Source of the DNA: a plasmid
Sequence record: NZ_CP072388.1
DNA: 64,000 nucleotides
Strand: one strand, 5' to 3'
Shown here: piece by piece, positions 4,936 to 25,063 of the stretch
Numbering within the stretch: the first letter of the stretch is position 1
Layout of the letters: each line of letters opens with the position of its first letter
Made by a program: the position numbers and the translations under genes
Notes under the pieces: model-generated
The model's database searches: none
What the model was told of the DNA's origin: nothing
The model's input: only the letters and a program-made list of their open reading frames with translations

Positions 4936-4952
4936 GCCCTCATCTTGCCATG

Positions 4953-5009: not shown

Positions 5010-5020
5010 AGGAGAGTGCG

Positions 5021-6939: not shown

Positions 6940-6961
6940 CCGCCCTGCGGGCACGGCAAAC

Positions 6962-7033
6962 ATAGATCGTGCTCTATCTGTCATCCGGGCTTCCGACCTC
7001 GTTCACCACACGTTCACATAGACCGCGTTCTAT
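6962..7033. promoter_or_regulatory. pstS promoter region: PHO-box-like 11-nt direct repeats plus two copies of palindrome ATAGA-N6-TCTAT
   Basis: GTTCACCACAC/GTTCACATAGA at 7001-7022 (two GTTCAC units 11 nt apart). ATAGATCGTGCTCTAT (6962-6977) and ATAGACCGCGTTCTAT (7018-7033). Confidence 0.4.
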
Positions 7034-7085
7034 CGATCGTGTTGGTGGATGCGGGCGGGCGAAGGTCCCGCCCCGACGAGACGGG

Positions 7086-8069: not shown

Positions 8070-8080
8070 CCGGCGCCTCG

Positions 8081-9055: not shown

Positions 9056-9963
9056 TGGCCCTGCACACCCCCGCCGTGGCGACCCAGCAAGCTCGCCTGG
9101 CCACCGGTAACCGGTCCAAGGAACGCACCCCGACCTCGGTGCTCTTCCTGGCCCTGCTGTGGATCTCGCTGTTCGTCGCGTTCGCCACCCTCGTCGCGCT
9201 GATCGTCACGACGATCGCCCAGGGCGCCGACCGGCTCGACTCGCGCCTGTTCACCGAGTACCCGTCCTCGCGGCCCGAGGAGGCCGGGGCGCGCCCCGCG
9301 ATCCTGGGGTCGCTGTGGGTGATCGGCACCACCGCCGCCCTCGCGATCCCGCTCGGGGTCGCCGCGGCCGTGCACCTGGAGGAGTTCGCCGACCGGCGCC
9401 ACTGGTTCAACCGGTTCATCGAGCTCAACATCCAGAACCTGTCGGCCATCCCGTCGATCATCTACGGCATGCTCGCGATCGGGACCCTGGCCTTGATCGG
9501 CGTCGGGAACAAGAACATCGTGATCGGCGGCGCGCTCGCCCTGGCGCTGCTCATCCTGCCCGTCATCATCATCGCCACCCGTGAGGCGTTGCGCGCCGTC
9601 CCGCGCGAGCTGCGCCACGGGTCGCTCGCTCTAGGCGCGACCGAGCTGCAGACCACCTGGCGCATCACGTTGCCCGCCGCGGTCCCGGGCATCGCCACCG
9701 GCACGATCCTGGCCCTGTCCCGCGCGCTCGGCGAGGCCGCGCCGCTGCTGCTGCTGGGTGCCCTGGTGTTCATCTCCTTCGACCCCAACGGGCTGCTCTC
9801 GGGCTTCACCACCATGCCGATCCAGATCTATGGCTGGACCAACGCACCCCAGGCCGGGTTCCACGAGCTCGCGGCCGCGACCTCGATCCTGCTCGTGGGG
9901 ATCCTGCTGGCCATGAACGCGCTGGCCATCATCATCCGCAACCGCTACCAGCGCCGCTGGTGA
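9055..9963 (+). CDS. pstA: phosphate ABC transporter permease
   Basis: ATG overlaps the pstC stop (TGATG). Permease topology with an EAA-like loop. Confidence 0.9.
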
Positions 9964-9986
9964 GACCACCCGAGGACCACCCCACC

Positions 9987-10868
9987 ATGACCACCACCGG
10001 CACCTCCGCGAAGGCCACCATGTCCTCCAGCACCCAGATCTCCACTCGCCCCGCCCACAGCGAGCACCGCGAGATCCCTGCCGAGCCCAACCCGGTCCTG
10101 CAGTGCGAGGACGTCGACGTCTACTACGGCTCCTTCCGCGCCGTGCGCGACGTGTCCCTGGCGTTCGGGCACAACGAGATCACGGCCCTCATCGGCCCGT
10201 CCGGGTGCGGGAAGTCCACCATCCTGCGCTCCTTGAACCGGATGAACGACCTGGTCGAAGGCGCGCGCGTGACCGGGTCCGTACGGTACTGGGGCCAGGA
10301 CATGTATGGCGCCGGCGTGGACCCGATCGAGGTGCGCCGCCGCATCGGGATGGTCTTTCAAAAGCCCAACCCGTTCCCGAAGTCGATCTACGACAACATC
10401 GCCTACGGCCCGAGAGTCACGGGGATGAAGGTCGCGTCGATGGACGACCACGTCGAGCAGGCACTGACCCGCGCCGCCCTGTGGGACGAGGTCAAGGACA
10501 AGCTCAAGCAGTCCGCCTACGGCCTGTCCGGTGGGCAGCAGCAGCGCCTGTGCATCGCCCGCACGATCGCCGTCGAGCCCGACGTGATCCTCATGGACGA
10601 GCCGTGCGCGTCGCTCGACCCCATCGCGACCATGCGCATCGAGACCCTCATGACCGAGCTGCGCGACCTGTACACGATCGTCATCGTCACCCACAACATG
10701 CAGCAGGCGGCCCGCGTCGCCGACCGCACCGCGTTCTTCACCGCCGCCGTCGACGAGACCACCGGTGACCGCACGGGCGAGCTCGTCGAGTTCGACCACA
10801 CCGCGAAGATCTTCGAGAACCCGGCCGACCAGCGCACCGAGGACTACATCACCGGACGCTTCGGCTGA
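9987..10868 (+). CDS. pstB: phosphate ABC transporter ATP-binding protein
   Basis: Walker [10 protein letters not shown], signature [13 protein letters not shown], Walker B ILMDEP. A start at 9960 (GTG) is also possible. Confidence 0.9.
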
Positions 10869-10888
10869 CCACCCACCAGGAGCCGACG

Positions 10889-11644
10889 ATGACCGTCACC
10901 CTTCCCCCGCGCGGTCCCAGCACCCAGCGCGAGGCCACCGCGCTCGGGCCCCAGACCGTGCGCGCCGTCCTCGTCGACCCCACGTTCGACCCTCGCGAAG
11001 GGCTCGTGACCGCGATGCGCGAGCAAGGCATCACGCTCGAGCCCGTGAGCGACCCGCTGCGCGGCCTCGCCCGCGCCTCGCTCGCACACACCCGCGCCGT
11101 CGTGGTCAGCGCAGCGGTGGCCGACCCGATGCTCAGCGCCTTCGTCGCCGTGGTGCGCGACGAGCTCGACCTGCCCGTCCTGCTCGCCCACCGGGCCGGC
11201 GACGCCGACCGGCTCGGCGGCGCGGTGCTCGCCGGGGCCCGGCCCGTCGTCGACCAGCCCTACCAGCCCGCGCGCATGGCCGCGACCCTGCTCGGCCTCG
11301 CCGGGAACCAGGAACCAGGGATCGTGCGCGTCGGATCGCTCGAGCTCGACCCGGACGCCTACGACGCACGCCTGCACGGACGCGGCATCGACCTGAGCAC
11401 GCTGGAGTTCGAGGTCCTGCACGAGCTGGCGACCCACCCCGACCACGTGATCCCGCGCGAGCGGTTCACCCACCGCTACTGGCCGCGTTCACCCGACCCG
11501 GACGGAACCCTGGCCGCGGTCATCTCCCGCCTGCGCCGCAAGCTCGACGCCCATCACCTCGCCGGCGCCATCCACACCGTGCGCGGGATCGGCTTTCGCC
11601 TGGAGAGCGCCGTCCTCGCCGCATACTCACACCCAAACCCATAG
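10889..11644 (+). CDS. OmpR/PhoB-type winged-helix DNA-binding protein with atypical (pseudo-)receiver N-terminus
   Basis: C-terminal trans_reg_C-like domain (LELDPDAYDARLHGRGIDLSTLEFEVLHELA...TVRGIGFRLE). The N-terminal 130 aa is receiver-like but lacks the acidic DD pocket. Lies directly after pstB. Confidence 0.65.
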   Translation: MTVTLPPRGPSTQREATALGPQTVRAVLVDPTFDPREGLVTAMREQGITLEPVSDPLRGLARASLAHTRAVVVSAAVADPMLSAFVAVVRDELDLPVLLAHRAGDADRLGGAVLAGARPVVDQPYQPARMAATLLGLAGNQEPGIVRVGSLELDPDAYDARLHGRGIDLSTLEFEVLHELATHPDHVIPRERFTHRYWPRSPDPDGTLAAVISRLRRKLDAHHLAGAIHTVRGIGFRLESAVLAAYSHPNP

Positions 11645-11656
11645 ACGTCGATCTAT
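11641..11656. promoter_or_regulatory. third copy of palindrome ATAGA-N6-TCTAT
   Basis: ATAGACGTCGATCTAT overlaps the stop codon of the 10889 regulator and lies upstream of the 11666 ORF. Confidence 0.3.
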
Positions 11657-11665
11657 CATGATGGG

Positions 11666-12079
11666 GTGGCGAGCCGACTCCTCGACCGGGACGTGAGCGC
11701 GACCGTCGCCGTCGCGGCGTCGGCCGAGCAGACGTGGCGTGCGCTCCTGGTCGTCCTGGGGATCGACGCCGAGGTACCGGGTGTGCCGGCGGCCTACGGG
11801 GCCATGGCCGGGCGTGTGCGCGACGCTGTGCCGGGGGACGGCTTGGTGGTGCGTGGCCGTCTGGGCGCGCGCACGTACGAGTTCTCCGCCCATCTCGTCG
11901 CCCGCGGTGTGTGGTGCGACCTGACGGTGGACGCAGCCCCGGACGACCTTGTCGGGGCAGTAGAGGGCGGGCGCTGGCGGCACCACCTGGCCCGGCGTCG
12001 GGTCCGGCAGCTCGTGCGAGATCTGGTGACCGATGTCGCGCGCACGGCGGGTAGCGGCGCCGGTCCGGTCTCGCGCTGA
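11666..12079 (+). CDS. hypothetical protein (possible SRPBCC-fold)
   Basis: GTG-start ORF of 137 aa. Family assignment is weak. Confidence 0.35.
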   Translation: MASRLLDRDVSATVAVAASAEQTWRALLVVLGIDAEVPGVPAAYGAMAGRVRDAVPGDGLVVRGRLGARTYEFSAHLVARGVWCDLTVDAAPDDLVGAVEGGRWRHHLARRRVRQLVRDLVTDVARTAGSGAGPVSR

Positions 12080-12093
12080 GAGGCTGCCCGGCT

Positions 12094-13005
12094 TCAGGGG
12101 GTGATCTCGCGTACGAGGTCGTGCACGCGCGCGGTGATGTCGTCGACGATGCGCACGACGTCCTGAAGTGGGCGACCGGAAGGGTCCTCGACGGTCCAGT
12201 CGACGTAGCGCCGGCCAGGGAAGACCGGGCAGGCGTCGCCGCAGCCCATGGTGACCACGACGCCTGAGGCGCGCACGACCTCGTCGGTGAGGGGGCGGGG
12301 AAACTCGGTCAGCGCGTCGAGGCCGCGTCGCGCGAGCTCGGTGCGCACGACGGGGTCGATCGAGGCGGCGGGCACCGACCCGGCAGTGCGCACGCGCACC
12401 TGGTCGCCGGCGATCGAGCGCAGCACCGCGGCGGCGATCTGGGACCTGCCGGCGTTGCGCACGCACACGAACAGCACGTCCTGGCGCGGCGCGAGGCCGT
12501 GCCGGTCGAGGGTGAGGGCGGCGAGCCGGTCGGCGGCGAAGCGCGCGGTGAGCGCGGGCAGGTGGCGGCGCACGGTGGCGCGGGCGGCGAGCAGGTCGTA
12601 GCTGTCGGTGACGAACCGGGCGACGGTCTCGGGCGCGAGGACGTCGGTGTAGGTGGCGCTCAGGTCGGCGGTGATCCGTCGCAGGAGGCGGTCGTGGTCC
12701 CCGGGTGGGACGTGCGCGGCGCCGGACCGGTCCGGCGCGCCGATCGCGGCGCCGCCGAATCGGGCCAGGGCGTCCGGGGTCGGGCGGTATCGCGCGTCGG
12801 GGCCGTGTCCGACGCGGACCAGGACACCGACGTCGCTCATGGCCTGCAGGTGCGCGCCGACGGCGTCGAGGGCGCCACCGGGTCCGGCCAGGTCTCGGGC
12901 GCGGGGCTGTCCACTCGGGTCGGTGATGATCAGGGCCAGGAGCCGCAACCTGTCGGGATCGGCCATCGTGGCGGCCTGGGCGGCGCGCAGGTCGTCCGGG
13001 CTCAT
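12094..13005 (-). CDS. arsC: fusion: degenerate ArsR-like HTH + linker domain + LMW-PTP-family arsenate reductase
   Basis: C-terminal CX5R P-loop VLFVCVRNAGRSQIAA and a distal Cys (VVTMGCGDACP) typical of thioredoxin-coupled ArsC. The N-terminal HTH-like region lacks the CVC motif. Confidence 0.75.
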   Translation of the reverse strand: MSPDDLRAAQAATMADPDRLRLLALIITDPSGQPRARDLAGPGGALDAVGAHLQAMSDVGVLVRVGHGPDARYRPTPDALARFGGAAIGAPDRSGAAHVPPGDHDRLLRRITADLSATYTDVLAPETVARFVTDSYDLLAARATVRRHLPALTARFAADRLAALTLDRHGLAPRQDVLFVCVRNAGRSQIAAAVLRSIAGDQVRVRTAGSVPAASIDPVVRTELARRGLDALTEFPRPLTDEVVRASGVVVTMGCGDACPVFPGRRYVDWTVEDPSGRPLQDVVRIVDDITARVHDLVREITP

Positions 13006-13024
13006 CGGGGCACGCCCCGCCCGG

Positions 13025-13381
13025 TCAGCGCAGCAGGTCCGCGATCGCGTGCAGACGGACGGGGACGATGGAGTACCAGACCTCGCGTCCCACGGGGTCG
13101 CGGGTGACGATGCCCGCCTCGGTCATCACCTTCAGGTGGTGGGACACGGTGGGCTGGCGCAGGCCGAGCGCGCGGGTCAGGTCCGCGACGCGGGCACGGG
13201 CATCGGCGCTGTGGTGGATCAGGCTCAGCAGCTGTAGGCGGGTGGGGTCGGAGACGACCCGCAGCAGCGTGGCGGTGTCCTCGGCCTGCTCGCGGCTCAG
13301 CGTCGTGCGCAGGGCGGGCCCCGGCGCGCGTTCGGCCCGCCCCTGCAGGGGCGGGGACGACTCGCTTGCCGGGGCGCTCAC
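13025..13381 (-). CDS. arsR: ArsR-family regulator (cysteine-free)
   Basis: LQLLSLI...QPTVSHHLKVM HTH. No Cys anywhere in the protein. Confidence 0.8.
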   Translation of the reverse strand: MSAPASESSPPLQGRAERAPGPALRTTLSREQAEDTATLLRVVSDPTRLQLLSLIHHSADARARVADLTRALGLRQPTVSHHLKVMTEAGIVTRDPVGREVWYSIVPVRLHAIADLLR

Positions 13382-13403
13382 CCATCGAGGATAGCCGTCC
13401 GCG

Positions 13404-13844
13404 TCAGGCGGCCGGGGTGGGCGCGACCGGCGTGACGCCGAGCTCGCCCAGCAGGGTCAAGACACGGCCGCGGATCTCGTCGCGAATGGGGCGCACAGAC
13501 TCGATGCCCTGCCCTGCCGGGTCGGCGAGCTCCCAGTCCTCGTAGCGCTTGCCGGGGAAGATCGGGCAGGCGTCGCCGCAGCCCATGGTGATGACGACGT
13601 CGGACGCCTGGACGGCCTCGGTGGTGAGGACCTTGGGCTGCTCGGCGCGGATGTCGATGCCCTCTTCGAGCATGGCCTCGACGGCGACGGGGTTGATCTG
13701 GTCCGCCGGGGCCGAGCCGGCGGAGCGGACCTCGACGGCGCCGCCGGACAGTGCGCGAAGGTAGCCGGCGGCCATCTGGGATCGGCCGGCGTTGTGGACG
13801 CAGACGAACAGGGCTGACGGCTTCGCGGTGGTGGTGTCGGTCAT
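13404..13844 (-). CDS. arsC: arsenate reductase, LMW-PTP family (thioredoxin-coupled)
   Basis: AGGAGAA RBS. P-loop ALFVCVHNAGRSQMAAG. Downstream Cys pair ITMGCGDACP. Confidence 0.85.
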   Translation of the reverse strand: MTDTTTAKPSALFVCVHNAGRSQMAAGYLRALSGGAVEVRSAGSAPADQINPVAVEAMLEEGIDIRAEQPKVLTTEAVQASDVVITMGCGDACPIFPGKRYEDWELADPAGQGIESVRPIRDEIRGRVLTLLGELGVTPVAPTPAA

Positions 13845-13870
13845 GGCGTTCTCCTGGTTGCTGGTGGATC

Positions 13871-14881
13871 TCAGGCGATGGTCAGGGTCAGGTCGGGCAG
13901 CAGGTCGGCGAGCAGGCCCCGTACTCGCTCGTCGAGGTCGTCGCGGATCGCGGCGACCCCTGCGGGGGAGGCCAGGGCGGGGTCGCCGACGAGCCAGTCC
14001 TCGTACCTCTTGCCGGGCAGCACGGGGCAGACGTCGCCGCAGCCCATGGTGATGACGACATCGGCGGCGCGGACGGCGTCGTCGGTCAGGGGCTTGGGGA
14101 AGGCTTCGTCGTCGTCGGTGCCGAGCTCGGTCAGGGCCTCGAGCACCCCGTCGTGGATGTCGGCGGCAGGCGTGGACCCGGCGGAGCGGACCACGACGCG
14201 GTTCCCGGCGTAGTGCTGCAGCAGGGCGGCGGCGAGCTGGGAGCGTCCGGCGTTGGCGACGCAGACGAACAGCACTTGCGGTCGGGCGTCGCCGGAGCGG
14301 GTGAGGTCGGCCAGTCTCTGGCGGGCGAACCGTGCGGTGAGCGGCACCAGGTGGGCCGAGACCTTCGCCGAGCGGGCCAGGTCGGTGTAGGACTCGCGGA
14401 CCACGCGTTGCACGACGTCGAACCGGACGTCGGGAAACGCTCCGGCGAGGTCCTCGGCGAGGTGGTCGAGCGCCGGGTCGACGTCGTCCAGCCCCGCCAG
14501 GACGGCCGCACCGTGTGCAGAGCCCAGCGCGGCCGGGGCGAACGAGTCGAGCAGCGTCGTCACCGCGGCCTTGTAACCGCCGGTGATGCGGTACCAGACC
14601 CAGGTGCCGCGCCGTTCGGAGGTCAGCACGCCGACGTCGCGCAGCACCTTGAGGTGGTGCGACACGGTGGGCTGTGACACGTCGGTGAGGGCGGCGAGGT
14701 CGCACACGCACGCCTCCCCGGCGGGTGCGGTCGCGATGAAGGACAGCATCCGTAGCCGCAGCGGCTCGGCGAGGGCCTTGAGCGTGGTGGCGACGGCGCC
14801 GGCGACCTCGGTGCCGATCGCGTGGGACTCGATCTGCGGGGCGCAGTCCGGGTCCGTGACAGTCAAGGGTGTGGTGGTCAT
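13871..14881 (-). CDS. tri-domain fusion: ArsR (EACVCDL metalloid site) + linker domain + LMW-PTP arsenate reductase
   Basis: N-terminal LRLRMLSFIA...EACVCDL...QPTVSHHLKVL. C-terminal VLFVCVANAGRSQLAA...ITMGCGDVCP. ATG overlaps the acr3 stop (ATGA). Confidence 0.8.
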   Translation of the reverse strand: MTTTPLTVTDPDCAPQIESHAIGTEVAGAVATTLKALAEPLRLRMLSFIATAPAGEACVCDLAALTDVSQPTVSHHLKVLRDVGVLTSERRGTWVWYRITGGYKAAVTTLLDSFAPAALGSAHGAAVLAGLDDVDPALDHLAEDLAGAFPDVRFDVVQRVVRESYTDLARSAKVSAHLVPLTARFARQRLADLTRSGDARPQVLFVCVANAGRSQLAAALLQHYAGNRVVVRSAGSTPAADIHDGVLEALTELGTDDDEAFPKPLTDDAVRAADVVITMGCGDVCPVLPGKRYEDWLVGDPALASPAGVAAIRDDLDERVRGLLADLLPDLTLTIA

Positions 14882-15984
14882 GACCTCACCTCTTCCAGCT
14901 CGGGTGTTCGAGTCGTGGGGGCGTAGGGGTCGACGGCGAACCAGCGGCGCGCGAGCCACAGGGAGACGTAGACGAGGCCGACGAGGACGGGGACCTCGAT
15001 GAGCGGGCCGACGACGCCGGCCAGGGCCTGACCTGACGTGGCGCCGAACGTGCCGATGGCGACGGCGATCGCGAGCTCGAAGTTGTTGCCCGCAGCGGTG
15101 AAGGCGAGCGTCGTGGAGCGTGCGTAACCGAGCGCGAGCATCTTGCCGACGACGATGCCGATGCCCCACATGGCGGCGAAGTACACCAGCAGCGGCAGCG
15201 CGATGCGGGCCACGTCGAGCGGGTGGGAGGCGACGGCCTCGCCCTGCAGGGCGAAGAGCAGCACGATCGTGAACAGCAGTCCGTACAGCGCCCACGGCCC
15301 GACCTTCGGCAGGAACCGGTCCTCGTACCAGGTGCGGCCCTTGGCGCGTTCGCCGACCAGGCGGGAGGCGAACCCGGCGGCCAGCGGGACACCGAGGAAG
15401 ACGAGGACGTTGAGCGCGATCTGCCCGACCGAGACGTCGAGGCCCTGGGTGTCCAGACCGAGCCATCCGGGCAGCACGGTGAGGTAGAAGTAGCCGAGCA
15501 GCGAGAACGCGACGACCTGGAAGGCGGAGTTGATCGCGACCAGCACCGTGGCCGCCTCCCGATCCCCGCACGCGAGGTCGTTCCAGATCACGACCATCGC
15601 GATGCAGCGGGCCAGGCCGACGATGATCAGCCCTGTGCGGTACTCGGGCAGGTCGGGCAGGAAGGCCCAGGCAAGGGCGAACATCAGCGCGGGACCGACC
15701 AGCCAGTTCAGTACCAGCGAGGAGACCAGGAGCCTCTTGTCGCCGGTGACCGCGCCGACGCGGTCGTAGCGGACCTTGGCCAGGACCGGGTACATCATGA
15801 CGAGCAGGCCGAGCGCGATCGGGACCGAGATCCCGCCGACCTCCATCGCCGTGAGCACCTCGGACAGGGCGGGGACGAACCGGCCCAGGACGAGACCGGC
15901 GACCATCGCGAGGCCGATCCACAGCGGCAGCCACCGGTCCAGCGTGGACAGGCGCCCGCGCGTGGCGGTCGTGGGGTCGCTCAC
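14878..15984 (-). CDS. acr3: ACR3-family arsenite efflux permease
   Basis: ten predicted TM helices (hydropathy estimate by eye). Conserved ACR3 regions LNWLVGPALMFALAW and IVGLARCIAMVVIWNDLACGD (catalytic Cys region). GTG start overlaps the trxA stop (GTGA). Confidence 0.9.
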   Translation of the reverse strand: MSDPTTATRGRLSTLDRWLPLWIGLAMVAGLVLGRFVPALSEVLTAMEVGGISVPIALGLLVMMYPVLAKVRYDRVGAVTGDKRLLVSSLVLNWLVGPALMFALAWAFLPDLPEYRTGLIIVGLARCIAMVVIWNDLACGDREAATVLVAINSAFQVVAFSLLGYFYLTVLPGWLGLDTQGLDVSVGQIALNVLVFLGVPLAAGFASRLVGERAKGRTWYEDRFLPKVGPWALYGLLFTIVLLFALQGEAVASHPLDVARIALPLLVYFAAMWGIGIVVGKMLALGYARSTTLAFTAAGNNFELAIAVAIGTFGATSGQALAGVVGPLIEVPVLVGLVYVSLWLARRWFAVDPYAPTTRTPELEEVRS

Positions 15985-16304
15985 GCGAGGACCTCCTCGA
16001 TCTCGGCGACCAGCGCCTGCTTCGGGCGTGCGCCGACGACGGACTTCACCAGCTGGCCGTCGGAGTAGAAGTTCAGCGTCGGGATCGACACGACGCCCGC
16101 CGCCGCCACGGTCTTCGGGTTGGCGTCGGCGTCGAGCTTGGCGATCGTGAGCCTGCCCTCGTACTCCTGCGCGAGCTCGGCCAGGATCGGGGCGACCTGG
16201 CGGCACGGGCCGCACCACGTGGCCCAGATATCCACCAGCACAGGCACTTCGGAGGCCAGGACCACCTCGTCGAAGGTGTCGTCGGTGACGGTCACGGTGC
16301 TCAT
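15981..16304 (-). CDS. trxA: thioredoxin
   Basis: WCGPC active site, 108 aa, GGAGGAG RBS. ATG overlaps the trxB stop (ATGA). Confidence 0.9.
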
Positions 16305-17323
16305 CGGATCTCCTCCAGCGCCAGGGGCAGCTCGTCGGGGTTCGGGGTCTCGGGCGTGCCGGCCAGGTTCGCAAGGCCGGCGGCGTCGGCGAGCTCGGTG
16401 AGGTAGGCCTGGGCGTCCAGGGCGGCGGAGGCGCCGGTCCCGGCGGCCGTGATGGCCTGCCGGTAGGTGTGGTCGACCACGTCGCCGGCGGCGAACACGC
16501 CCGACAGGTTGGTGCGGGTGGAGCGGCCCTGGACCAGGATGTAACCGTCGTCGTCGAGGTCGACCTGGCCCTTGACCAGGTCGGTGCGCGGCTCGTGGCC
16601 GACGGCGACGAACAGGCCCGTCGCGGGCAGCTCGCGCTCGGCGCCGGTCACGGTGTCGCGCAGCGTCAGGCCCTCGACCTTGTTCTCTCCGCCGATCGCG
16701 GCGACCTCGCTGTTCCAGGCGAACTCGATCTTCGGGTCGTTCAGGGCGCGGTCGGCCATGATCTTCGACGCACGCAGCTCCCCACGGCGGTGCACGACGG
16801 TGACCTTGGACGCGAACCGGGTGAGGAACGTGGCCTCCTCCATCGCGGAGTCCCCGCCGCCGACGACCGCGATGTGCTGGTCGCGGAAGAAGAACCCGTC
16901 GCAGGTGCCGCACCAGGACACCCCGCGCCCGGACAGCCGCTCCTCCTCGGGCAGGCCGAGCTTGCGGTAGGCGGACCCGGTGGTCAGGATCACCGCCCGG
17001 GCCCGGTAGGTGTCGCCGCTGCCGGTGTGGAGCGTCTTGACCGGGCGGTCCAGCTCGAGGGACGTCACGTCGTCCCACACGATGCGCGCCCCGAACTTCT
17101 CGGCCTGGGCCCGCATGGCGTCCATGAGCTCAGGGCCTTGGATGCCGTCCGCGAACCCGGGGAAGTTCTCCACCTCGGTCGTGGTCATCAGCGCGCCACC
17201 GGCGGTGACCGAGCCGGCGACCACCACCGGCGCCAGGCCGGCACGGGCGGCGTAGATCGCCGCGGTGTACCCGGCGGGGCCCGACCCCACGATCACGATC
17301 TCCTGAACCTCTTGCATCGACAT
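16301..17323 (-). CDS. trxB: thioredoxin-disulfide reductase
   Basis: [18 protein letters not shown] motif, redox CGTCDG (CxxC), NADPH motif [10 protein letters not shown]. Confidence 0.9.
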
Positions 17324-17398
17324 GCCTCTATGTTGACACCGGTCGATGCAGCGCGCAAGGTGGATATCGATGAACGTCGATGCAACAGGAAGTGGATC

Positions 17399-17656
17399 AT
17401 GAACTGTTACGAGCACGCGCAGGAAGGCCGCGAGACGGTCGCCGTGGGGGTCTGCCCGCGCTGTGGCGCCGCGGTCTGCGCCGAGCACGCGGGGGAGTGT
17501 CGGGTCGAGATCGTTCGGAGCAACGGTGTCGGGTCGCCGACCCTCGGGCAGCACCGGGTCGTGTGCTGCGACCGGTGCCGCGCCTCTGGAGCTTGTGCCG
17601 GCGTGTGGCGGGCGGGCGTCGACGGCGCGCGTGAGCCGGCTGGTCGCGGCGTGTAG
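17399..17656 (+). CDS. small Cys-rich zinc-ribbon protein (DUF2180-like), paralog of 2423
   Basis: MNCYEH...[12 protein letters not shown]...CCDRCR. Divergent from trxB. The intergenic region carries GTCGATGCA twice. Confidence 0.5.
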
Positions 17657-17705
17657 CGCTCAGTTCACCGTGCTCGGAAGAAGCCCTGGTGGGTCGCCGG
17701 GGCGG

Positions 17706-18926
17706 TCATGCAGCGTTTGGGCGGTGCACCCCGGTCGACAGGGCGATGAGTGCCGCGAGGGCGGCGGACGCGGCAAGGACCGCGAACGTCGCCGGGTAGG
17801 AGCCGGTGGCGCCGGTGAACGCGGCGGCCGCCCAGGGCGCCAGTGCCATCGCGAGCGTGGTGGGGGCGTTGAGGATCCCGAACAAGACGCCGTACGAGCC
17901 CGATCCCCACCGGTCGCTGATCGCGGTGGACTGCAGCAGCGTGAATGCGCCGCGCGCCACGCCGAGGGCGACGGCGGCGGCGATGAGCGCGGTGGCCGGT
18001 CCGTCGAGCAGCCCGACGATGGCGATCGTCAGGGCCGAGGTGCCGAGGAGCGCGCTGGCGCGGACGGGTGGTGTGGTGCGCGCGGCGAGCGATCCGTACG
18101 CGATGCGCCCCAGGAGCTGACCCGCGCCGGACAGGCCGAGCGCCCACGCGGCCGCAGCCGCTGTCAGGCCGCGCCAGGTCAGCATCGGCACCAGATGGAT
18201 GGTGGCGGCGAACATCGCGAACGCGCCCAGCGCGGTGGCGCAGGTCAGGGCGAGGAACGCTCGAGAGCGCGCGATCGTTCGCCACCCGCCTCCGCCGTGT
18301 GCGTGCTGGGCGGTCTCGAGGGGCGGCCAGGGTGCGCGCAGGCCGATTGCGTGCGCGGGGATGGTCGTCAGGGCGAGCAGGACGGCCAGGAAGAGGTAGG
18401 TCTGGCGCCATCCCGCGTGCTGGACCAGGGCGGCGGTCAGGGGCGCGAAGATCGTGCTCGCGAGCCCTGCCACCAGGGTCAGCACGAGCAGGGCCCGGGT
18501 CCGCGCGGGCCCGTACCAGCGGGTGATCGCGGTGAACGCCGGGGCGTAGAGCACCATCGACTGGGCGACGCCGACCATGACCCAGGCGGCGAGGAACCAA
18601 CCCAGGGACGGGGCAAGCGCGACGGCGATCACGGCGACGCTCGCCAGGACGGACCCAGTGGTCATCACCGCCCGGGGACCGTGGTGATCGATGCGTCTGC
18701 CCACGAGCACGCCCGCGCCGGCTGCGACGACCAGGGCCGCGGAAAACGCGGCCGTCGCGCTGGCTGGCGACCAGCCGGTGTCGGCCGTGATGGCCGGCAA
18801 GGCGACCGGGAAGGAGTAGTACAGGACGCCCCACCCCACGACCTGGGTCAGGCACAAGGCCGCGAGGGTGCCGCGTGGGCCGGTGCGCAGACCGGCGTCG
18901 CCTCGGCCCCTCTGCGTGGTGGTCAC
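17706..18926 (-). CDS. MFS transporter (candidate ArsK/ArsJ-like efflux)
   Basis: Twelve TM segments. Start and stop overlap the upstream flavin-monooxygenase gene. Confidence 0.8.
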   Translation of the reverse strand: MTTTQRGRGDAGLRTGPRGTLAALCLTQVVGWGVLYYSFPVALPAITADTGWSPASATAAFSAALVVAAGAGVLVGRRIDHHGPRAVMTTGSVLASVAVIAVALAPSLGWFLAAWVMVGVAQSMVLYAPAFTAITRWYGPARTRALLVLTLVAGLASTIFAPLTAALVQHAGWRQTYLFLAVLLALTTIPAHAIGLRAPWPPLETAQHAHGGGGWRTIARSRAFLALTCATALGAFAMFAATIHLVPMLTWRGLTAAAAAWALGLSGAGQLLGRIAYGSLAARTTPPVRASALLGTSALTIAIVGLLDGPATALIAAAVALGVARGAFTLLQSTAISDRWGSGSYGVLFGILNAPTTLAMALAPWAAAAFTGATGSYPATFAVLAASAALAALIALSTGVHRPNAA

Positions 18927-20005
18927 GACCGAGTCAGCGTACGCACGGTGCGTGCGTGCGCGCTGACCGCCGCGGCGACGTGGGCGGCGTCGCGGTGCAC
19001 GCCGCGCAGCGTGTTCGAGGCGAACGAGCGCTGCAGCTCCAGCCCCACGAACCCCAGTCCCGGCCGGGCGAGCGAGATCCCGCCGCGCTGGCGCGGCATA
19101 CCGCGCTCGTCCAGCAAGGCCAGGTCACCGAGGTAGTCCAGCGCGGGCCGGTACCCGGTGGCCAGCACGAGGGCGTTGACGCGTTCGCGTGCCCCGTCTG
19201 CCCACACCACCCCGTCCTGGTCGACCGCGCTGAACATCGCGCGCGAGTCCACGGTGCCGTTCGCCAGCGCCTCGCGATAGCTGCCGGCGTCCAGGACCAG
19301 CGGCCCACGCACCACGCGTCGAAGCACCGCCGGGGGGAAGCGGTCGAAGCCGGTGACGCGGAACCAGAAGTGCACGTCCCGCCCCAGCGGGCGCTGGGTC
19401 GCGAACACGACGGGCTGGCGCGTCGCGAGGGTCACGTCGCTCACTTGCGCGAGCTCGTGCGCGATCTGCACCCCCGAGTTCCCGCCACCGACGACCACGA
19501 CGCGCTCCCCGGCGAACGACGAGGGATCGCAGTACTGGGCCGCGTGCACCACCCGGCCCGTGAAGTGCTCCAGCCCAGCAACGCTCGGACGCACAGGGTT
19601 GGCGAACGACCCCGTCGCCGCGATCACCCCGCTCGCGTCGAGCTCGACCCCGTCGCCCGTGCGCACCACGAACCCGGTCCCCGCCGGCTCGACCCCCACC
19701 ACCCGGGTTCCCGTCCGCACCTCGACCCCGAGGTGGTCGGCGTACCGGTGCAGGTGCTCGACCACCTCGTCCCGCGCCGGGTACCGGTCCGGGTCCCCCC
19801 CGAAGCCGAACCCGGGGAAGCCGCTGTACCGGGCCGGGGAGAACAGCCGCAGGCTGTCGTAGTACGACGGCCACGACCCCACCGGTCGGTCGCCCGCCTC
19901 CAGCACGAGCGGCTCGAGACCTCGCTCGCGCACGGCCCTGGCCGCGGCCAGGCCCGACTGGCCGGCACCGCTGATGATCACGGGGAGCGTCGTTGACGTC
20001 GTCAC
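18923..20005 (-). CDS. flavin-containing monooxygenase-like NAD(P)/FAD-binding protein (ArsO/ArsV-like)
   Basis: GTG start. IISGAGQSGLAAARAV (FAD) and a second dinucleotide site VVVVGGGNSGVQIAHEL. Sits in an ars context, divergent from arsR. Confidence 0.75.
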   Translation of the reverse strand: MTTSTTLPVIISGAGQSGLAAARAVRERGLEPLVLEAGDRPVGSWPSYYDSLRLFSPARYSGFPGFGFGGDPDRYPARDEVVEHLHRYADHLGVEVRTGTRVVGVEPAGTGFVVRTGDGVELDASGVIAATGSFANPVRPSVAGLEHFTGRVVHAAQYCDPSSFAGERVVVVGGGNSGVQIAHELAQVSDVTLATRQPVVFATQRPLGRDVHFWFRVTGFDRFPPAVLRRVVRGPLVLDAGSYREALANGTVDSRAMFSAVDQDGVVWADGARERVNALVLATGYRPALDYLGDLALLDERGMPRQRGGISLARPGLGFVGLELQRSFASNTLRGVHRDAAHVAAAVSAHARTVRTLTRS

Positions 20006-20069
20006 ATCCGTAACGTATCGATGATTCGCAATATGTCAATACGACGATGGATCGAGATACGCTCCAGGG

Positions 20070-20399
20070 ATGAGCACGCCGACAAGCCGCCCAGCGGTCG
20101 TGGAAGCTGCGCCGCTCGCGCTGGCCGAGGCGACGCACGACTTTCTCAGCGCGTTGGCGAGCCCCACACGCCAGCGTGTCCTGCTGCTGTTCGCGCGCGG
20201 CGGCGAGCTCGCGGTCGGGGAGGTGGCCGAACGTGCAGGCATCAGCCAGCCCACTGCATCCCAGCACCTGCAGATCCTGCGCCGTGGTGGCATTGTGACC
20301 TCGCGCCGCCAAGGCCGGGTCGTGCTCTACCGCGCCGACCGCGACGGCGTGGCGCGTGCGCTGAGCGACCTGCAGGCCTATCTCCAAGCGTGCTGCTGA
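20070..20399 (+). CDS. arsR: ArsR-family regulator with C-terminal Cys-Cys pair
   Basis: HTH ...QPTASQHLQIL. The protein ends ...LQACC, and has no CVC motif. Confidence 0.8.
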   Translation: MSTPTSRPAVVEAAPLALAEATHDFLSALASPTRQRVLLLFARGGELAVGEVAERAGISQPTASQHLQILRRGGIVTSRRQGRVVLYRADRDGVARALSDLQAYLQACC

Positions 20400-20426
20400 G
20401 CACCTGGAGGTCGTCGCGCCGCTCGC

Positions 20427-22955
20427 TCAGCCGTCTGGGTCCGAGCTCGCACGTTCCGCCCTGATGGCTGAGGGCGGCCCCGTAGGCGAGAGCTGGGCGA
20501 CCTCCTGCCTACGGGTTCGCAGGTGCCTGAGACTCTCTTCCAGGGCCGCAACCTCTCCGAGCCAGACTCGCTCGCGCGCCTCTCGCAGCCGGGCTTCGGC
20601 GTTCACGGTCATCTCGTCGAGGCGGCCGGCCTGTGCGGGGTCGACCTTGAGGAAGCGGCATCGGGTGCAGGCGTGCTCGTGCACGCACGGGGTGCCGTAC
20701 GGGCGGCGGCAGTCGCCGAGGGCGACCTTGCGCAGCAGGAAGTGTTGCTCGAACTCGTTCCACTCGTCGGGGGTGGCCGTGCGCAGCTCTTCCTCGGGGC
20801 GGGTGTGCCGGCGTCGCTCGACGAAGGCGTGGTGGGCCTGGATGACGTGCTCGGGGAAGACGGCTGTGTAGCCGCGGGTCGTGTCGAGGTTCAGATGCCC
20901 CAGGAGCGTGGAGACGATGTGCAGCGGGAGGCCTGCGCCGACGAGGTCGGTGGCGAACAGGCGTCTGAAGTCGTGCGGAGTGAACCGTACGGGGGTCTCG
21001 CCGTCGTGGATCCCTGCTCGGTCGGCGACCTGGTGCAGGAGCGTGCGCACGTACTGGGCGGAGAGCACGCTCTGCCGGGAGCCGATCCTGCGGGCGAACA
21101 GGTGGGGGAGCGGGTCGCTGAACACCTTCTCGTTCGGGTCGTACCGGACCGACAGGGGGACGCTCGGGCTGCCGCCGCGTGCGCGGCGTTGGACCTCGAC
21201 AAGGACCTTGACCAGGTCGGGGCTCATCGGGACGAGGCGTTCGGCGTCGGTCTTCGACGGGACGATGTGCAGCAGCGGCACGATGGTGTTGGTGGTCGGC
21301 GCGACGTAGTGCCGCAGGGACAGCTGCGTGAGCTCGAGGAGCTCTTCGATCCGCACTCCCGTCTCGCGCAACGACTCGACCACGGCCCATGCCCAGAAGC
21401 TGTCGGCCTCCAGGCGAGAGATGCACACCAGGCCGCGTTGCGCCGGTGGGATGCGGGCGTGCTCGGCGATCTCGACGATCCGGGCCCAGACCTGGTTGCG
21501 CGCAGCTCGGTTCGAGTGGAGGGGCGGGTCGTGGCGTTCGTAGGTGATGCCATCGACGGTGAACCGCTCGCCGTGACCGGCCGTGACGGCTGCGGCCAGC
21601 AGCCGGCTCCCGTCCTCTCGTAGCGCGTGGGCGGCGGCGGTGAACCGTGGAAGGTGCGGGGTGAGTGTCCGGGTACGTGCTTGCATGCGCGAGCGTCGTT
21701 GACGGTTGGCCTTCGACGCGCTCCGGGACTCGTGTCGTGGGACGGGGCAGGGCGCGACCCAGTAGGCCCAGCGTTCGGGCTCCTCGTGGGACCACTCGGC
21801 CAGGTCGCGGTAGAGCGCGCGTACCGAGAAGAACACCGACGCCACGTCGCGACGCGGGTGTCCGTCAAGAGTCGTGGCGAGCCGCTCACGCCACCGAACA
21901 GCGACCGCCGGAGCCAGACGCAAGTCGGCCTGATCCGGATTCAGGGCGAGGACCTGTCCCCAGAAGAGGCGCACCAGCCGATACGACAGGCCTTCCAACG
22001 ACCCGTAGTCCAGGCTCGCGCGCAGCTCGCCGAGGTAGTCGACCAGCAGGTCCAGAACCCCTGAGTGCGGGAGGCCGTACCGGGCGACGAGGGTCTGGAC
22101 GGAGTGCTGGCGAGAGTTCCCGGCTGCCGCCCAGGCGGCCCGTAGCGTCGGCGGTTCACCGGCGAGGGGCCCCAGCGCGACCAGGAGCTCCCAGGCCAGG
22201 TGCTCCTTGTTGTGCCGCTGGGAGGTACGCACGACGTCGGCGTAGGCGAGCAGATCGTCGCCCGTGAGCCGTCCCAGGCGCTTGCCGGTGCGGATCAGGA
22301 CTCGCGCCAGGCAGGTCTCGGCGTTGCGGCGCGCGAGCTCGGGCGCGTGCTCATAGGCGGACAGTGCCCGTAGCCGGACCATGGCGTCGGGTTCGGCGGT
22401 GTCGAGGAACCGGGCTGACGGGGCGCGCCGGTAGTGCGCGGCTCGCAGCAGCCAGGAGTAGGAGGGCCGCACCGTGCGCGCCTCGATGAGCGACATCACG
22501 GCGATCGAGACGAGCTTCCTGTGCACGCCGGTCTGGAGAGCGACGGCATCGATGCCGCCGTTCGGTGCGGCGTCCAAGCCGCTGGAGATCCACCGTTCCT
22601 CCCACGTCGATCCCGGGTGCTGGGCGAGCCAGGTCAGCACCCTGCGTACGGCACGGTCGCGGGCACGCTGAGCTTTCGGGAGCGGCTGTGAACGGCCGGA
22701 CAGGTAGGACTCGACCCAGGTGCAGGTTGCCTCCACATCGAGGGTCTGCACGTGCGCGAGCTCGTGGTCGGGCTCTCGCAGTGGCGGCAGTAGGGCGGTG
22801 TCGTAGGCGGGCCGACCGCGCGTCCTGCCGTCCTTGGAGTGCATCGGGTCCGGTGCAACGGCCGCACGAAGGACCCGGGTGCGCCGTCTCGTCTCGGCTG
22901 CCTGTGCGCGCGAGGGCAACCTCGGGTCGAGCGCCACCTCGCCGGTGCCGCTCAC
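20427..22955 (-). CDS. large tyrosine recombinase (Tn554 TnpB-like)
   Basis: C-terminal catalytic region R...HDFRRLFAT...LLGHLNLDTTRGYT (R-H-R-Y). 842 aa. GTG start overlaps the upstream recombinase stop (GTGA). Confidence 0.85.
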   Translation of the reverse strand: MSGTGEVALDPRLPSRAQAAETRRRTRVLRAAVAPDPMHSKDGRTRGRPAYDTALLPPLREPDHELAHVQTLDVEATCTWVESYLSGRSQPLPKAQRARDRAVRRVLTWLAQHPGSTWEERWISSGLDAAPNGGIDAVALQTGVHRKLVSIAVMSLIEARTVRPSYSWLLRAAHYRRAPSARFLDTAEPDAMVRLRALSAYEHAPELARRNAETCLARVLIRTGKRLGRLTGDDLLAYADVVRTSQRHNKEHLAWELLVALGPLAGEPPTLRAAWAAAGNSRQHSVQTLVARYGLPHSGVLDLLVDYLGELRASLDYGSLEGLSYRLVRLFWGQVLALNPDQADLRLAPAVAVRWRERLATTLDGHPRRDVASVFFSVRALYRDLAEWSHEEPERWAYWVAPCPVPRHESRSASKANRQRRSRMQARTRTLTPHLPRFTAAAHALREDGSRLLAAAVTAGHGERFTVDGITYERHDPPLHSNRAARNQVWARIVEIAEHARIPPAQRGLVCISRLEADSFWAWAVVESLRETGVRIEELLELTQLSLRHYVAPTTNTIVPLLHIVPSKTDAERLVPMSPDLVKVLVEVQRRARGGSPSVPLSVRYDPNEKVFSDPLPHLFARRIGSRQSVLSAQYVRTLLHQVADRAGIHDGETPVRFTPHDFRRLFATDLVGAGLPLHIVSTLLGHLNLDTTRGYTAVFPEHVIQAHHAFVERRRHTRPEEELRTATPDEWNEFEQHFLLRKVALGDCRRPYGTPCVHEHACTRCRFLKVDPAQAGRLDEMTVNAEARLREARERVWLGEVAALEESLRHLRTRRQEVAQLSPTGPPSAIRAERASSDPDG

Positions 22956-24151
22956 GGTGTCCAGCCGAGCAGCTCACGCACGGCCGCCGCGTCGTAGTCG
23001 GGCTCGACAGCAGCAGGTGGCGGCTTGGGGCGGGAGAAGTGCTCGAGCACCTTGGCCAACACGTCCTCCATCCGGGGCTGGGTGTAAATCGTCGTGGTGA
23101 AGATGTTCACGTGGCGAAGGACCGTCTGGACGTCGACCAAGGTGAATGCCGGGTCGGCCAGCAGGCGCTCGGCGGCCGTGTGCCGCAGGTCGTGCAGCGT
23201 CCAGTTCGATCCGATCCCGCGTTGCGCGCGCGAGAACATGGCCCGAGCCGCGTGGTAGGTCAGTGGTCTGAGTGCCGCCCCGGTGCGCGTCCACCAGACC
23301 CGATCGCCGGGTGCCGCCGGCTGACCTTCGCGCATGTACAGCGCCAGCCACACGAACGCGTCCGGGCTCGCCGGGACGCGTTCTGGCGCGCGGCTTCCCT
23401 TGGTGACGACGGTGATCGTGTGCTCCCCGAAGTCGTAATCTCCGTGCCGCAGCTCCAGCAGCTCGGTTGCCCGCACGCCGCTGGAGAGCCAGAACGACAG
23501 CAGCGCTCGGTCACGGTGACACGTCAGCGCGTCGAAGATCTGGTCGACGTACTCGTCAGGGATGCCGCGCCAGCCGATCCTGGGTACCCGCTGGCGGTAC
23601 GGCGCCCGGGCATGCCGGCGAAATTCACGCATCGGGTCCTGGTGGGCGTTGACGCGGCCCCTGCCGGAACGCTGGGCGGGGACAGGGTTCACCAGCGGAC
23701 CCAGATCCGCGGCGAGCGCAAAGTCGTAGAACCCGGCCAGCACCGAAAGTTGGTGGTTGATCGTGCGCGGAGCAAAGCCTGTCGCGGGACTCGCCCTGCC
23801 GGTAACCATGTTGATCTCGGCGCCACGCTCTCCGCGTCGTAACGCGGTCGCCGTCGGTGCCGCCCGTAAGTACTCCACGAAGGCGCGCACGTCGACACGC
23901 TCAGCACGCTCCCACGCCACGAGCCGCTGGTGGAGGAACCGGAACCACCGGAGCAAGTCGTAGGCGTAGCTGCGGACCGTCGCGGGACTGCAGTCCGACG
24001 CAGACAGATCACGCAGGTACAAGGAGGCTGCTGCGTGCTCGAGATCGGGGAACACGACCCGGAACGGCAGGCCGGAGTCGCACTCCACGACCCGGCCCAC
24101 GGCGCCCGTCACGCGCGACAGCGTCCCATGACGCACACCGCACGTCACCAC
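22952..24151 (-). CDS. tyrosine recombinase (Tn554 TnpA-like / XerD-like)
   Basis: N-terminal SAM-like core-binding region. Catalytic HDLRHTAAERLL...LRHVNIFTTTIYT. Confidence 0.85.
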   Translation of the reverse strand: MVTCGVRHGTLSRVTGAVGRVVECDSGLPFRVVFPDLEHAAASLYLRDLSASDCSPATVRSYAYDLLRWFRFLHQRLVAWERAERVDVRAFVEYLRAAPTATALRRGERGAEINMVTGRASPATGFAPRTINHQLSVLAGFYDFALAADLGPLVNPVPAQRSGRGRVNAHQDPMREFRRHARAPYRQRVPRIGWRGIPDEYVDQIFDALTCHRDRALLSFWLSSGVRATELLELRHGDYDFGEHTITVVTKGSRAPERVPASPDAFVWLALYMREGQPAAPGDRVWWTRTGAALRPLTYHAARAMFSRAQRGIGSNWTLHDLRHTAAERLLADPAFTLVDVQTVLRHVNIFTTTIYTQPRMEDVLAKVLEHFSRPKPPPAAVEPDYDAAAVRELLGWTP

Positions 24152-24184
24152 TCGATCTAGGAAGTTCAGTCAACGTGCCGGTGC

Positions 24185-25063
24185 GTGCTCGTGCGCGACG
24201 ACGCGGGCGTGAGCCTGTGGTCGCGGCGTGGCACCGACCTGACGGCGACGTTCCCGGAGATCGCGGCCGCGGCCGCGGAGCAGGTCGCGCCGGGGGCCGT
24301 GCTCGACGGTGAGCTCGTGGTCTGGACCGGGGGCCGGCTCGACTTCGAGGTCTTGCAGGAGCGGATGGGCCGCGGCGCGCGCAGCGCGGCCGCGCACGCC
24401 CGGCGCCGGCCCGCGTCGTTCGCGCTGTTCGACGTCCTCGCCGTCGACGGGCGCGACGTGCGCGGGCGGCCGCTGCGCGAGCGGCGCGCGCTGCTCGAGG
24501 AGGCCGCGACGTCGTGGCGCCCGCCGCTGAACCTGTCCCCGGTGACCGGCGACGTCGACGAGGCGCGCGAGTGGTTCGAGACGTACACGGTGGCCGGTGT
24601 CGAAGGCTTGGTCGTCAAGGGCGCCGGCGAGGCGTACCGGGGCGGGGAGCGGGCCTGGTTGAAGGTCAAGCACCGGGCCACGCTCGACGTCGTGTGCGCC
24701 GCGGTGATCGGCACCATGACCCAGCCGCAACAGGTCGTAGCCGGCCTGCCGATCGACGGCGAGCTGCGCATCGTCGGGCGCACCGGCCCGCTCACGCCGA
24801 CGGCGCGCCGCGCTCTCGCCGTCCACCTGCGACCGCCAGCAGGGGAGCACCCCTGGCCGGCGCAGGTGGCACCGGGTGCGTTCGGCCGGTTCAACGCCGA
24901 CCGCTCCGAACCGGTCACGCTCACGCGGGTCGAGCCGCTCGTCGTCGAGGTCAGCGCCGACGCCGCCTGGTCAGGCCGGTCTTTCCGCCACGCCCTACGT
25001 CTGCTCCGCGCCCGCCCGGACGCCGAGGTCTCCGCCGTGGAACCGCCACGTCGGGGCCAGTGA
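24185..25063 (+). pseudogene. ATP-dependent DNA ligase (LigD-like ligase domain), 5'-truncated
   Basis: Motifs GVEGLVVKGAGEAYRGGERAWLKVK (ligase motifs V/VI). The KxDG adenylation motif is absent. An in-frame stop lies at 24158-24160, immediately upstream. Confidence 0.6.

Follow-up and report, generated by a model that had tools for sequence, protein, structure and literature searches.

A three-gene unit of ArsR, flavin monooxygenase, and ArsK-like pump in an actinobacterial arsenic island recurs in several bacterial phyla

In this study, we examined three genes in a 64,000-nucleotide stretch of a plasmid (sequence record NZ_CP072388.1; the window, below, is the whole of this stretch): an arsR repressor gene and, divergent from it, genes for a flavin-containing monooxygenase (FMO) and a major facilitator superfamily (MFS) transporter. 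An original prediction, made from the sequence, had put the trio forward as a candidate organoarsenical module. We find that this unit of ArsR, FMO, and ArsK-like pump, which lies in an actinobacterial arsenic island, is real and recurs in several bacterial phyla. It most likely detoxifies trivalent arsenic, and the trivalent arsenic that it handles is probably methylated; a selectivity for organoarsenicals is what we infer.

The three open reading frames (ORFs) have exactly the positions and features previously described, as judged from the ORF list and the sequence. ArsR is divergent, across a 64-bp intergenic region, from an operon of two overlapping genes. The overlap is the tetranucleotide GTGA at 18923-18926, in which the TGA stop codon of the FMO gene and the GTG start codon of the MFS gene are combined, and MFS is translationally coupled to FMO through it. 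The G+C content at third codon positions (GC3) of the FMO gene is 0.93 and the homologues of each of the three proteins (ArsR, FMO, and MFS) number in the hundreds, which argues that the genes are real.

Our sample was 80 genome loci retrieved with the clade of the window FMO, and in these loci three discrete flavoprotein families were found: the family of the window FMO itself, here called FMO-2 (83 genes), true ArsO (25 genes), and a family of about 465 residues, here called flavo475 (58 genes). The FMO-2 genes are 55 to 73% identical to the window FMO and 35 to 42% identical to ArsO. A divergent ArsR of the window subfamily is present in 46 of the 80 loci, an MFS gene adjoins FMO on the same strand in 31, and ArsC or ACR3 is encoded within 10 kb in 53; true ArsO is found in the same locus in 24 cases and flavo475 in 57. 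Six loci have none of ArsC/ACR3, true ArsO, or a divergent ArsR. These counts, together with the homologues of ArsR, agree that the trio is a genuine, conserved, and arsenic-linked unit.

The same associations extend to other phyla. A Pseudomonas shirazica plasmid carries ArsR (ending in ...FCCPGSQP), FMO-2 (46%), and MFS (30%) among arsC and arsR genes. On a Bacillus cereus plasmid, the order is ArsR-flavo475-FMO-2-ArsN1, and genes for RNase J, USP, and SulP come next; FMO-2 there adjoins ArsN1, an arsinothricin-resistance gene. In Stenotrophomonas rhizophila and Paenibacillus urinalis, FMO-2 (42 to 48% identity) adjoins a gene for a MarR protein with the cysteine spacing of MarR_ars, that is, a Cys-Cys pair and a further Cys at a distance of 120 residues, the spacing seen in AdMarR (C37 to C157). 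The same Paenibacillus MarR is also found upstream of flavo475. An MFS transporter beside FMO-2 in Paenibacillus lautus was considered as a relative of the window MFS and rejected as unrelated; the pump partner of FMO-2 is therefore not always of the same family.

The repressor has exactly two cysteines, C108 and C109, and these are its final two residues (...DLQAYLQACC); the ORF sequence bears out the earlier description of a C-terminal ...LQACC without a CVC motif. The protein matches HTH_20/HTH_5 in Pfam and HTH_metalloreg in NCBIfam (82 bits, cut-off 55), with a weak match to the sulfite sensor BigR. All 120 of its closest homologues end in ...YLxxCC; in 62 of these no other Cys is present, and another 56 carry a single additional Cys close to the N-terminus. 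An AlphaFold2 model (pLDDT 90) has the canonical α1-α5 and wing, with α5 spanning residues 91-108 and the Cys pair at its very end. Foldseek matches with this model were all ArsR/SmtB proteins, and the solved neighbor with the lowest root mean square deviation was AfArsR (6j05; 1.4 Å over 83 columns). The Cys pair aligns with that of the AfArsR-type ArsR (...ECCADAKC; ...YLVDECCADAKC) that heads the arsR-flavoprotein-arsK operon on the Rhizobium rhizogenes plasmid pC6.5c.

AfArsR binds As(III) via Cys95, Cys96, and Cys102 (a type 2 site). In SpArsR, loss of the third Cys gives selectivity for methylarsenite [MAs(III)] (PMC11868830, PMC13236881). The window ArsR is an AfArsR-lineage protein minus the third Cys, with no equivalent of AfArsR Cys102; the equivalence of its pair to Cys95/96 comes from the sequence alignment and the model. 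Thus, the suggestion that the terminal pair has the layout reported for MAs(III)-selective SpArsR holds, since the pair aligns with the AfArsR-type pair and the third Cys is gone. Among the 46 divergent ArsRs beside FMO homologues, 25 stop at the Cys pair and 21 extend as CCPP..C..C, so three-Cys and two-Cys forms exist on one scaffold. The proteins with a tail come from Nonomuraea, Planobispora, and relatives (loci L007, L012, L013, L017, and L019 and 16 others), where the gene lies just upstream of FMO at about 9640-9950 of the locus. The tail is Pro rich, with one to three more Cys (e.g., LRACCPPSAECG), which makes these sisters a three-Cys form of the protein that stops at the pair.

The FMO matches Pyr_redox_3 (7.8e-34) and FMO-like (2.6e-18) in Pfam and has the expected motifs: G13AGQSG18 for FAD, F148TGRVVHAAQY158 as the FMO signature FxGxxxHxxxY, and G173GGNSG178 for NAD(P)H. 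The 46 homologues compared all share residues G13, G15, G18, G150, H154, Y158, G173, G175, and N176, and solved relatives (4usr, 4usq, 4c5o, and 4a9w) match over residues 5-350 with E values of 4e-49 to 1e-46. The nearest named family is ArsO, with 232.6 bits (E 8.5e-69) against a curated cut-off of 425 bits for the ArsO equivalog (NCBIfam NF040505); the other named families score 133 bits or less. On the same model, the founding ArsO, of Streptomyces FR-008, scores 554.1 bits and other FMO-2 members score 243 to 265 bits, three of them named "ArsO family" in NCBI records. Pairwise identity of the window FMO is 37% with the founding ArsO and 58% with a second FMO, encoded beside ArsO on the FR-008 plasmid pSSFR1. 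Given the cut-off, the 37% identity, and the discrete clades, we rejected an identification of the enzyme as ArsO itself; as its sequence places it, FMO-2 is a clade paralogous to ArsO and discrete from it. The description of the enzyme as ArsO/ArsV-like is therefore right about the nearest named family, and it needs amending in that the score lies below the ArsO cut-off and the clade is a separate, paralogous one. Family scores, the 80 loci, and the clade comparison all group the enzyme with ars-associated FMOs rather than with CzcO or Baeyer-Villiger enzymes, as the original prediction expected. A disulfide reductase was also considered and rejected, the enzyme having a single, nonconserved Cys and no CxxC.

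The plasmid on which ArsO was defined has a second unit of its own. At 9973-13335 of the pSSFR1 locus (L001; Streptomyces sp. FR-008), unremarked beside the classical arsRBOCT, lie FMO-2 and then a CVC-type ArsR, divergent from flavo475 that overlaps an MFS transporter gene. Because FMO-2 and flavo475 adjoin arsRBOCT, all three flavoprotein families are present on this plasmid.

For the MFS protein (Pfam MFS_1, 1.6e-29), ArsK is the best NCBIfam match by a wide margin, at 172.4 bits (E 1.2e-50) against a curated cut-off of 400 bits for the ArsK equivalog (NF033733). The alignment runs end to end, from residue 19 to 396 of the protein and from position 3 to 384 of the 388 in the model. The protein is 33% identical to an annotated ArsK over 345 aa (E 2e-34), and a tblastn search against plasmid-borne ArsK genes gave 34 to 41% over its N-terminal half; beyond the Actinobacteria, its nearest plasmid homologues are annotated ArsK genes. 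What had been called simply an MFS exporter thus has ArsK as its nearest family, while scoring below the ArsK cut-off. A Cys in the first transmembrane helix, C25, is kept in 97% of homologues in the actinobacterial clade, a conservation that hints at a thiol-binding, i.e., trivalent, substrate. The start codon is ambiguous (18855-18926): a homologue from C. funkei is annotated as 23 codons shorter (383 aa), which would match a putative in-frame TTG at about 18855-18857, read from the sequence. We favor the GTG start because the ArsK alignment begins at residue 14, upstream of the TTG.

To footprint the putative operator, 19 ArsR-FMO intergenic regions, those of the window and of 18 related loci, were aligned. 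The sole strongly conserved block is ATCGTCATTT-TGACATATCGCG-AAATGACGAT-ATGTT, and the family consensus of the repeat that it contains is ATCGTCATTT-N12-AAATGACGAT, a 10-nt inverted repeat with a TTGACA -35 element inside it and a TAYGTT -10 element directly adjoining. The pattern ATCG-N6-TGACA-N13-CGAT has a single exact match in the window, and this is the probable operator block. ArsR probably binds the inverted repeat here (Table 1). The -35-like TTGACA of the FMO-MFS promoter straddles the boundary of the upstream arm of the operator and the spacer; the -10-like TACGTT lies 16 nt past it and 6 nt ahead of the GTG start codon. With the GTG only 6 nt after the -10 element, the FMO-MFS mRNA is probably leaderless or nearly so, its transcription start being a predicted one. 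A repeat search of the 64-bp region found none, because the arms of the operator are imperfect, and the promoter was recovered through phylogenetic footprinting only.

The region had also been said to carry motifs like those of other ars promoters, and this resemblance is weakly supported. It stands for one shared 9-mer, TCATCGATA, which contains ATCGATG and occurs twice in the 64 kb (0.08 expected by chance), once at 20016-20024 and once, at 17365-17373, in the promoter of trxB. It does not stand for ATCGAGATACG, for which there were 6 near-matches in the 64-kb window compared with 11 expected, none of them in an ars promoter, or for AGATACG, which is at chance level in the window. The GGATCGAGATACG half of the motif showed no repetition above chance, and TCGTCGATG and CATCGAY are frequent in coding sequence and uninformative. 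The divergent promoter of trxB and a DUF2180 gene (17315-17382) itself has four copies of CATCGAY and a perfect inverted repeat, TGCATCGAC-N20-GTCGATGCA, which from its sequence is probably the operator of a CVC-type ArsR. Since the 9-mer is common to both, cross-regulation of the trxB and FMO promoters is possible.

Table 1. Features of the ArsR-FMO-MFS unit and its promoter region (window coordinates)
Feature	Position	Strand	Length	Basis
ArsR/SmtB-family repressor	20070..20399	+	109 aa	ORF, NCBIfam HTH_metalloreg
Class B flavin-containing monooxygenase, FMO-2 clade, sister to ArsO	18923..20005	-	360 aa	Pfam and NCBIfam
MFS transporter, distant ArsK relative	17706..18926	-	406 aa	Pfam MFS_1, NCBIfam ArsK
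Divergent promoter region, FMO to arsR start codons	20006..20069	.	64 bp	sequence
Putative ArsR operator, imperfect inverted repeat ATCGTCGTAT-TGACATATTGCG-AATCATCGAT	20017..20048	-		19-region alignment
-35-like TTGACA of the FMO-MFS promoter	20034..20039	-		sequence, conserved in homologous loci
-10-like TACGTT	20012..20017	-		sequence, conserved as TAYGTT/TATGAT in homologues

We propose that the module is an ArsR-regulated accessory detoxification unit and belongs to the large arsenic island of a Cellulosimicrobium-like actinobacterium; that it works in the way sketched here seems to us an even call. An ArsR dimer, sitting on the inverted repeat over the -35 element and the spacer, would repress the leaderless FMO-MFS operon. 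A trivalent arsenical, binding C108 and C109 at the end of α5, would then release the repressor; with two thiols per subunit, the site would best suit two-coordinate ligands, of which methylarsenite and aromatic As(III) compounds are examples. One can envision that the FMO, with NAD(P)H, FAD, and O2, forms a flavin hydroperoxide, which would transfer oxygen to the soft As(III) or Sb(III) center and yield a pentavalent form of far lower toxicity. The cotranslated ArsK-like pump would then expel one of two species, the substrate in its trivalent form or the pentavalent product. Of this picture, our comparisons establish how the genes are laid out, which families they belong to, that the gene pairs and the putative operator are conserved, and that the setting is an arsenic one; the identity of the inducer and of the substrate, which way the pump works, and the repression are predictions.

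Several observations weigh against this proposal. The FMO and the MFS protein both fall short of the curated cut-offs of the families they most resemble, and the FMO has no Cys, conserved across the 46 homologues, that could hold an arsenical. A scan of 17300-20500 for consensus promoters and terminators called nothing, missing the FMO-MFS promoter. Two thiols alone do not exclude As(III) as the inducer, because the R773 ArsR keeps its As(III) response with two of its three Cys. About half of the ArsRs that end in the Cys pair have an additional N-terminal Cys, a possible third ligand, and the tails in 21 of the 46 divergent ArsRs bring extra Cys (CCPP..C). Streptomyces FMO-2 genes, moreover, are paired with CVC-type ArsRs; from these three-Cys and CVC-type pairings, it appears that the FMO-2 clade also answers to As(III)-type sensors. 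Finally, the literature accessible to us held no experimental data on the FMO-2 clade, and ArsO itself is still of unknown function in reviews from 2025-2026 (PMC12607644, PMC13641113).

The main rival reading is that the module serves inorganic As(III) and Sb(III) in general, with no organoarsenical selectivity, which we consider possible, if rather unlikely. The two-Cys ArsR would sense As(III) or Sb(III), the third ligand perhaps being a hydroxyl or mycothiol, or being supplied across subunits; the MFS would be a second ArsK-like arsenite/antimonite pump; and the FMO would oxidize Sb(III) or otherwise assist. The occurrence of three-Cys and CVC-type ArsRs with FMO-2 in many lineages is in keeping with this, as is the position of the module directly beside the classical trxB-trxA-ACR3-arsRC-arsC operon, with a 9-mer in common with the promoter of that operon. 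Two plasmids have MarR_ars beside FMO-2, and this regulator responds to As(III)/Sb(III) (bioRxiv 10.1101/2021.08.12.456183); ArsK exports As(III) and Sb(III) besides organoarsenicals (title of Shi et al. 2018, cited in PMC11719878; PMC13641113). However, the island already has ACR3 and CVC-type As(III) ArsRs, which would make a second inorganic system redundant, and inside an ArsC-expressing cell, oxidation of As(III) to As(V) would amount to a futile cycle. The sole characterized two-Cys ArsR of such a layout was also unresponsive to As(III) (PMC11868830).

A different question is whether the FMO acts on arsenic at all. It might be a transporter or redox helper, in the way that CzcO aids the CzcD exporter, or an oxygenase of a sulfur or thiol compound arising from arsenic stress, in which case ArsR would sense thiol oxidation at its Cys pair. 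The weak BigR match of ArsR fits with this, and the nearest solved relatives of the enzyme (4usr, 4usq, and 4a9w) are generalist small FMOs. Some FMO homologues are annotated as "putative oxidoreductase CzcO" or "flavoprotein involved in K+ transport," and a published description of CzcO makes it an FMO with a helper role in the export of cations (PMC12607644). Nonetheless, we think this improbable: ArsO is far ahead of the other named families (233 versus 133 bits or less), an arsenic marker is present in 74 of the 80 loci, and vicinal cysteines are ill suited to act as a disulfide switch and are a classic ligand of As(III). With no adjacent transporter in 49 of the 80 loci, the FMO is also not an obligate pump accessory. 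A pairing of some unrelated xenobiotic monooxygenase and efflux pump that neighbors ars genes on a mobile island by chance deserves hardly any weight. The region is indeed a mosaic, with recombinases 27 bp past arsR and conjugation genes after them, but an ars association repeated in 80 species and four phyla effectively refutes chance adjacency, and an arsenical-type Cys pair is found in 120 of 120 ArsR homologues.

The proposed organoarsenical role could also be taken further. FMO-2 may be a fourth family of ars flavoenzymes, other than ArsO, ArsV, and ArsZ, present in several phyla and partnering flavo475 and an ArsK-like pump against arsenic-based antibiotics, with the ArsR that stops at its Cys pair as a natural truncation of the AfArsR site; we regard this extension as speculative and rather unlikely. 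The linkage to ArsN1 hints at targets such as methylarsenite or trivalent arsinothricin precursors. If this were true, the ArsRs that stop at the pair, those with a tail, and those with an N-terminal Cys would form an evolutionary series that switches between As(III) and organoarsenical selectivity.

At 4564-6939 of the window, an ArsR gene (4564-4935, minus strand), the product of which has an N-terminal GGCC pair and a CVC motif, is divergent from a flavo475 gene (about 5039-6436, plus strand), which is followed by a GNAT gene (6316-6939, plus strand). The flavo475 protein, a Pyr_redox_3 flavoprotein of about 465 aa, is 55% identical to the one encoded ahead of arsK on Rhizobium rhizogenes pC6.5c and possibly corresponds to ArsZ or ArsV as published. 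The best family for the GNAT protein is the arsinothricin-resistance family ArsN1b, at 123 bits, below the 210-bit cut-off. It is possible that 4564-6939 is a second organoarsenical unit. The larger region at 565-6939 mirrors the Bacillus cereus plasmid described above, with SulP, RNase J, ArsR, flavo475, and an ArsN1-like GNAT; the matching stretch of that plasmid, from strain D17, is 1808-9002 of its locus (L088), where FMO-2 lies between flavo475 and ArsN1.

Around the module, the arsenic island continues on the minus strand downstream with trxB, trxA, ACR3, a fusion of ArsR and ArsC with a CVC motif, and ArsC, and beyond these with a further ArsR and then an ArsC-like fusion; this classical operon directly adjoins the module. 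pstSCAB and a response regulator are on the plus strand, on the upstream side. Between MFS and trxB, a small Cys-rich ORF matching DUF2180 (85 aa; 17399-17656, plus strand) converges on MFS and diverges from trxB. Because this gene intervenes, FMO-MFS is a separate two-gene operon, and readthrough of FMO-MFS into the trxB operon, which we considered, is ruled out. The two fusions of the ArsC type (within 12094-15000, minus strand) are unusual, with a layout like that of the arsRC2 fusions reported from Microbacterium. One, at about 13871-14881, joins ArsR (with CVC), a three-helix domain, and ArsC; in the other, at 12094-13005, an N-terminal region is followed by an MSMEG_6209-type three-helix dimerization domain and an ArsC-like phosphatase domain.

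On the other side, two tyrosine recombinases (842 and 399 aa) begin 27 bp past arsR. Beyond them are an apparently N-terminally truncated ATP-dependent DNA-ligase domain and then a TraG/VirD4-type coupling protein, the recombinase, ligase, and TraG region spanning 20427-25063 and 35392-37143 of the window. This arrangement suggests that, within a conjugative element, a recombinase element integrated at the margin of the ars island. A protein annotated in Cellulosimicrobium is 100% identical to the ArsR, and one from C. funkei has 96% identity to the FMO. A megablast search of 12000-24200 against plasmids matched the trxB/ACR3/arsC core only (about 77% identity), leaving the FMO-MFS-ArsR part unmatched, and a search for contigs that encode the window ArsR returned a single 933-bp contig.

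If the proposed mechanism is right, many Actinobacteria, as well as plasmids of Pseudomonas, Bacillus, and Paenibacillus, would hold a dedicated route for oxidizing and exporting trivalent organoarsenicals. Current annotation names the genes merely "flavin-containing monooxygenase" and "MFS transporter," and surveys of arsenic cycling would miss them. The ArsR subfamily, compact at 109 aa, is a candidate methylarsenite biosensor; in it, natural forms with two and with three Cys share a scaffold, which would make the evolution of selectivity directly testable. The existence of ArsO and FMO-2 as distinct, co-occurring paralogues may also help with the long-standing question of what ArsO-like enzymes do.

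Among known systems, ArsV/ArsW (Paracoccus sp. SY; ArsV also in Achromobacter sp. As-55) resembles the module in combining an NAD(P)H flavin monooxygenase with a permease in an ars island. ArsV oxidizes MAs(III), trivalent roxarsone [Rox(III)], and Sb(III) (bioRxiv 10.1101/2021.08.12.456183), and the ArsW permease, working jointly with the ArsV oxidase, extrudes the methylarsenate product (PMC10080717). The regulator of arsV is MarR_ars, which responds to As(III) and Sb(III) (bioRxiv 10.1101/2021.08.12.456183), whereas the window module has ArsR. arsV adjoins MarR_ars, and some FMO-2 homologues adjoin a MarR with the same Cys spacing; because of these neighbors in Stenotrophomonas and Paenibacillus, FMO-2 may be the ArsV family, an assignment drawn from the MarR neighborhood. 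It is ambiguous, since the Paenibacillus MarR also adjoins flavo475, and the flavo475 protein of the window (5039-6436) could equally well be ArsV or ArsZ.

With ArsO (Streptomyces sp. FR-008 arsRBOCT), the FMO shares its fold, length, class B FMO motifs, and ars-operon context. The two are discrete clades, yet they occur together in 24 of the 80 loci, the FR-008 plasmid included. The small class B FMOs of known structure, 4a9w/4c5o (Stenotrophomonas maltophilia), 4usr, and 4usq, are full-length homologues of about 357 to 361 aa. They are generalist oxygenases of thioethers and ketones (Baeyer-Villiger), and we know of no link between them and arsenic.

ArsK of Agrobacterium tumefaciens GW4, which pumps As(III), Sb(III), Rox(III), and MAs(III) out of the cell, is, like the window MFS, an MFS protein of ars islands, and ArsK is reviewed as an exporter of trivalent arsenicals (PMC13641113). 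Where the actinobacterial MFS clade conserves a Cys in transmembrane helix 1, ArsK has Gly. Upstream of the Rhizobium rhizogenes arsK there is likewise a gene for an ArsR that carries a C-terminal Cys pair, then a flavoprotein gene, and the latter overlaps arsK by 4 nt; the flavoprotein partner there is of the flavo475 family and is 30% identical to the window FMO. SpArsR (Shewanella putrefaciens 200) and AfArsR are, like the window ArsR, winged-helix proteins with a vicinal Cys pair that ends the dimerization helix, and SpArsR and the window ArsR both lack the third Cys of the AfArsR site. The window protein differs in stopping right after the pair, with no tail, and its identity to AfArsR-type proteins is low, at about 34%.

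Each part of the module thus has a close functional precedent: SpArsR and AfArsR for the repressor, ArsO and ArsV for the oxidase, and ArsK and ArsW for the pump. The architecture of an ArsR-controlled oxidase and pump is also already known. What is new is that ArsO and FMO-2 are separate, co-occurring paralogues, that there is an ArsR subfamily ending in a Cys pair with sisters that have a third Cys, and that the module is widespread yet unannotated.

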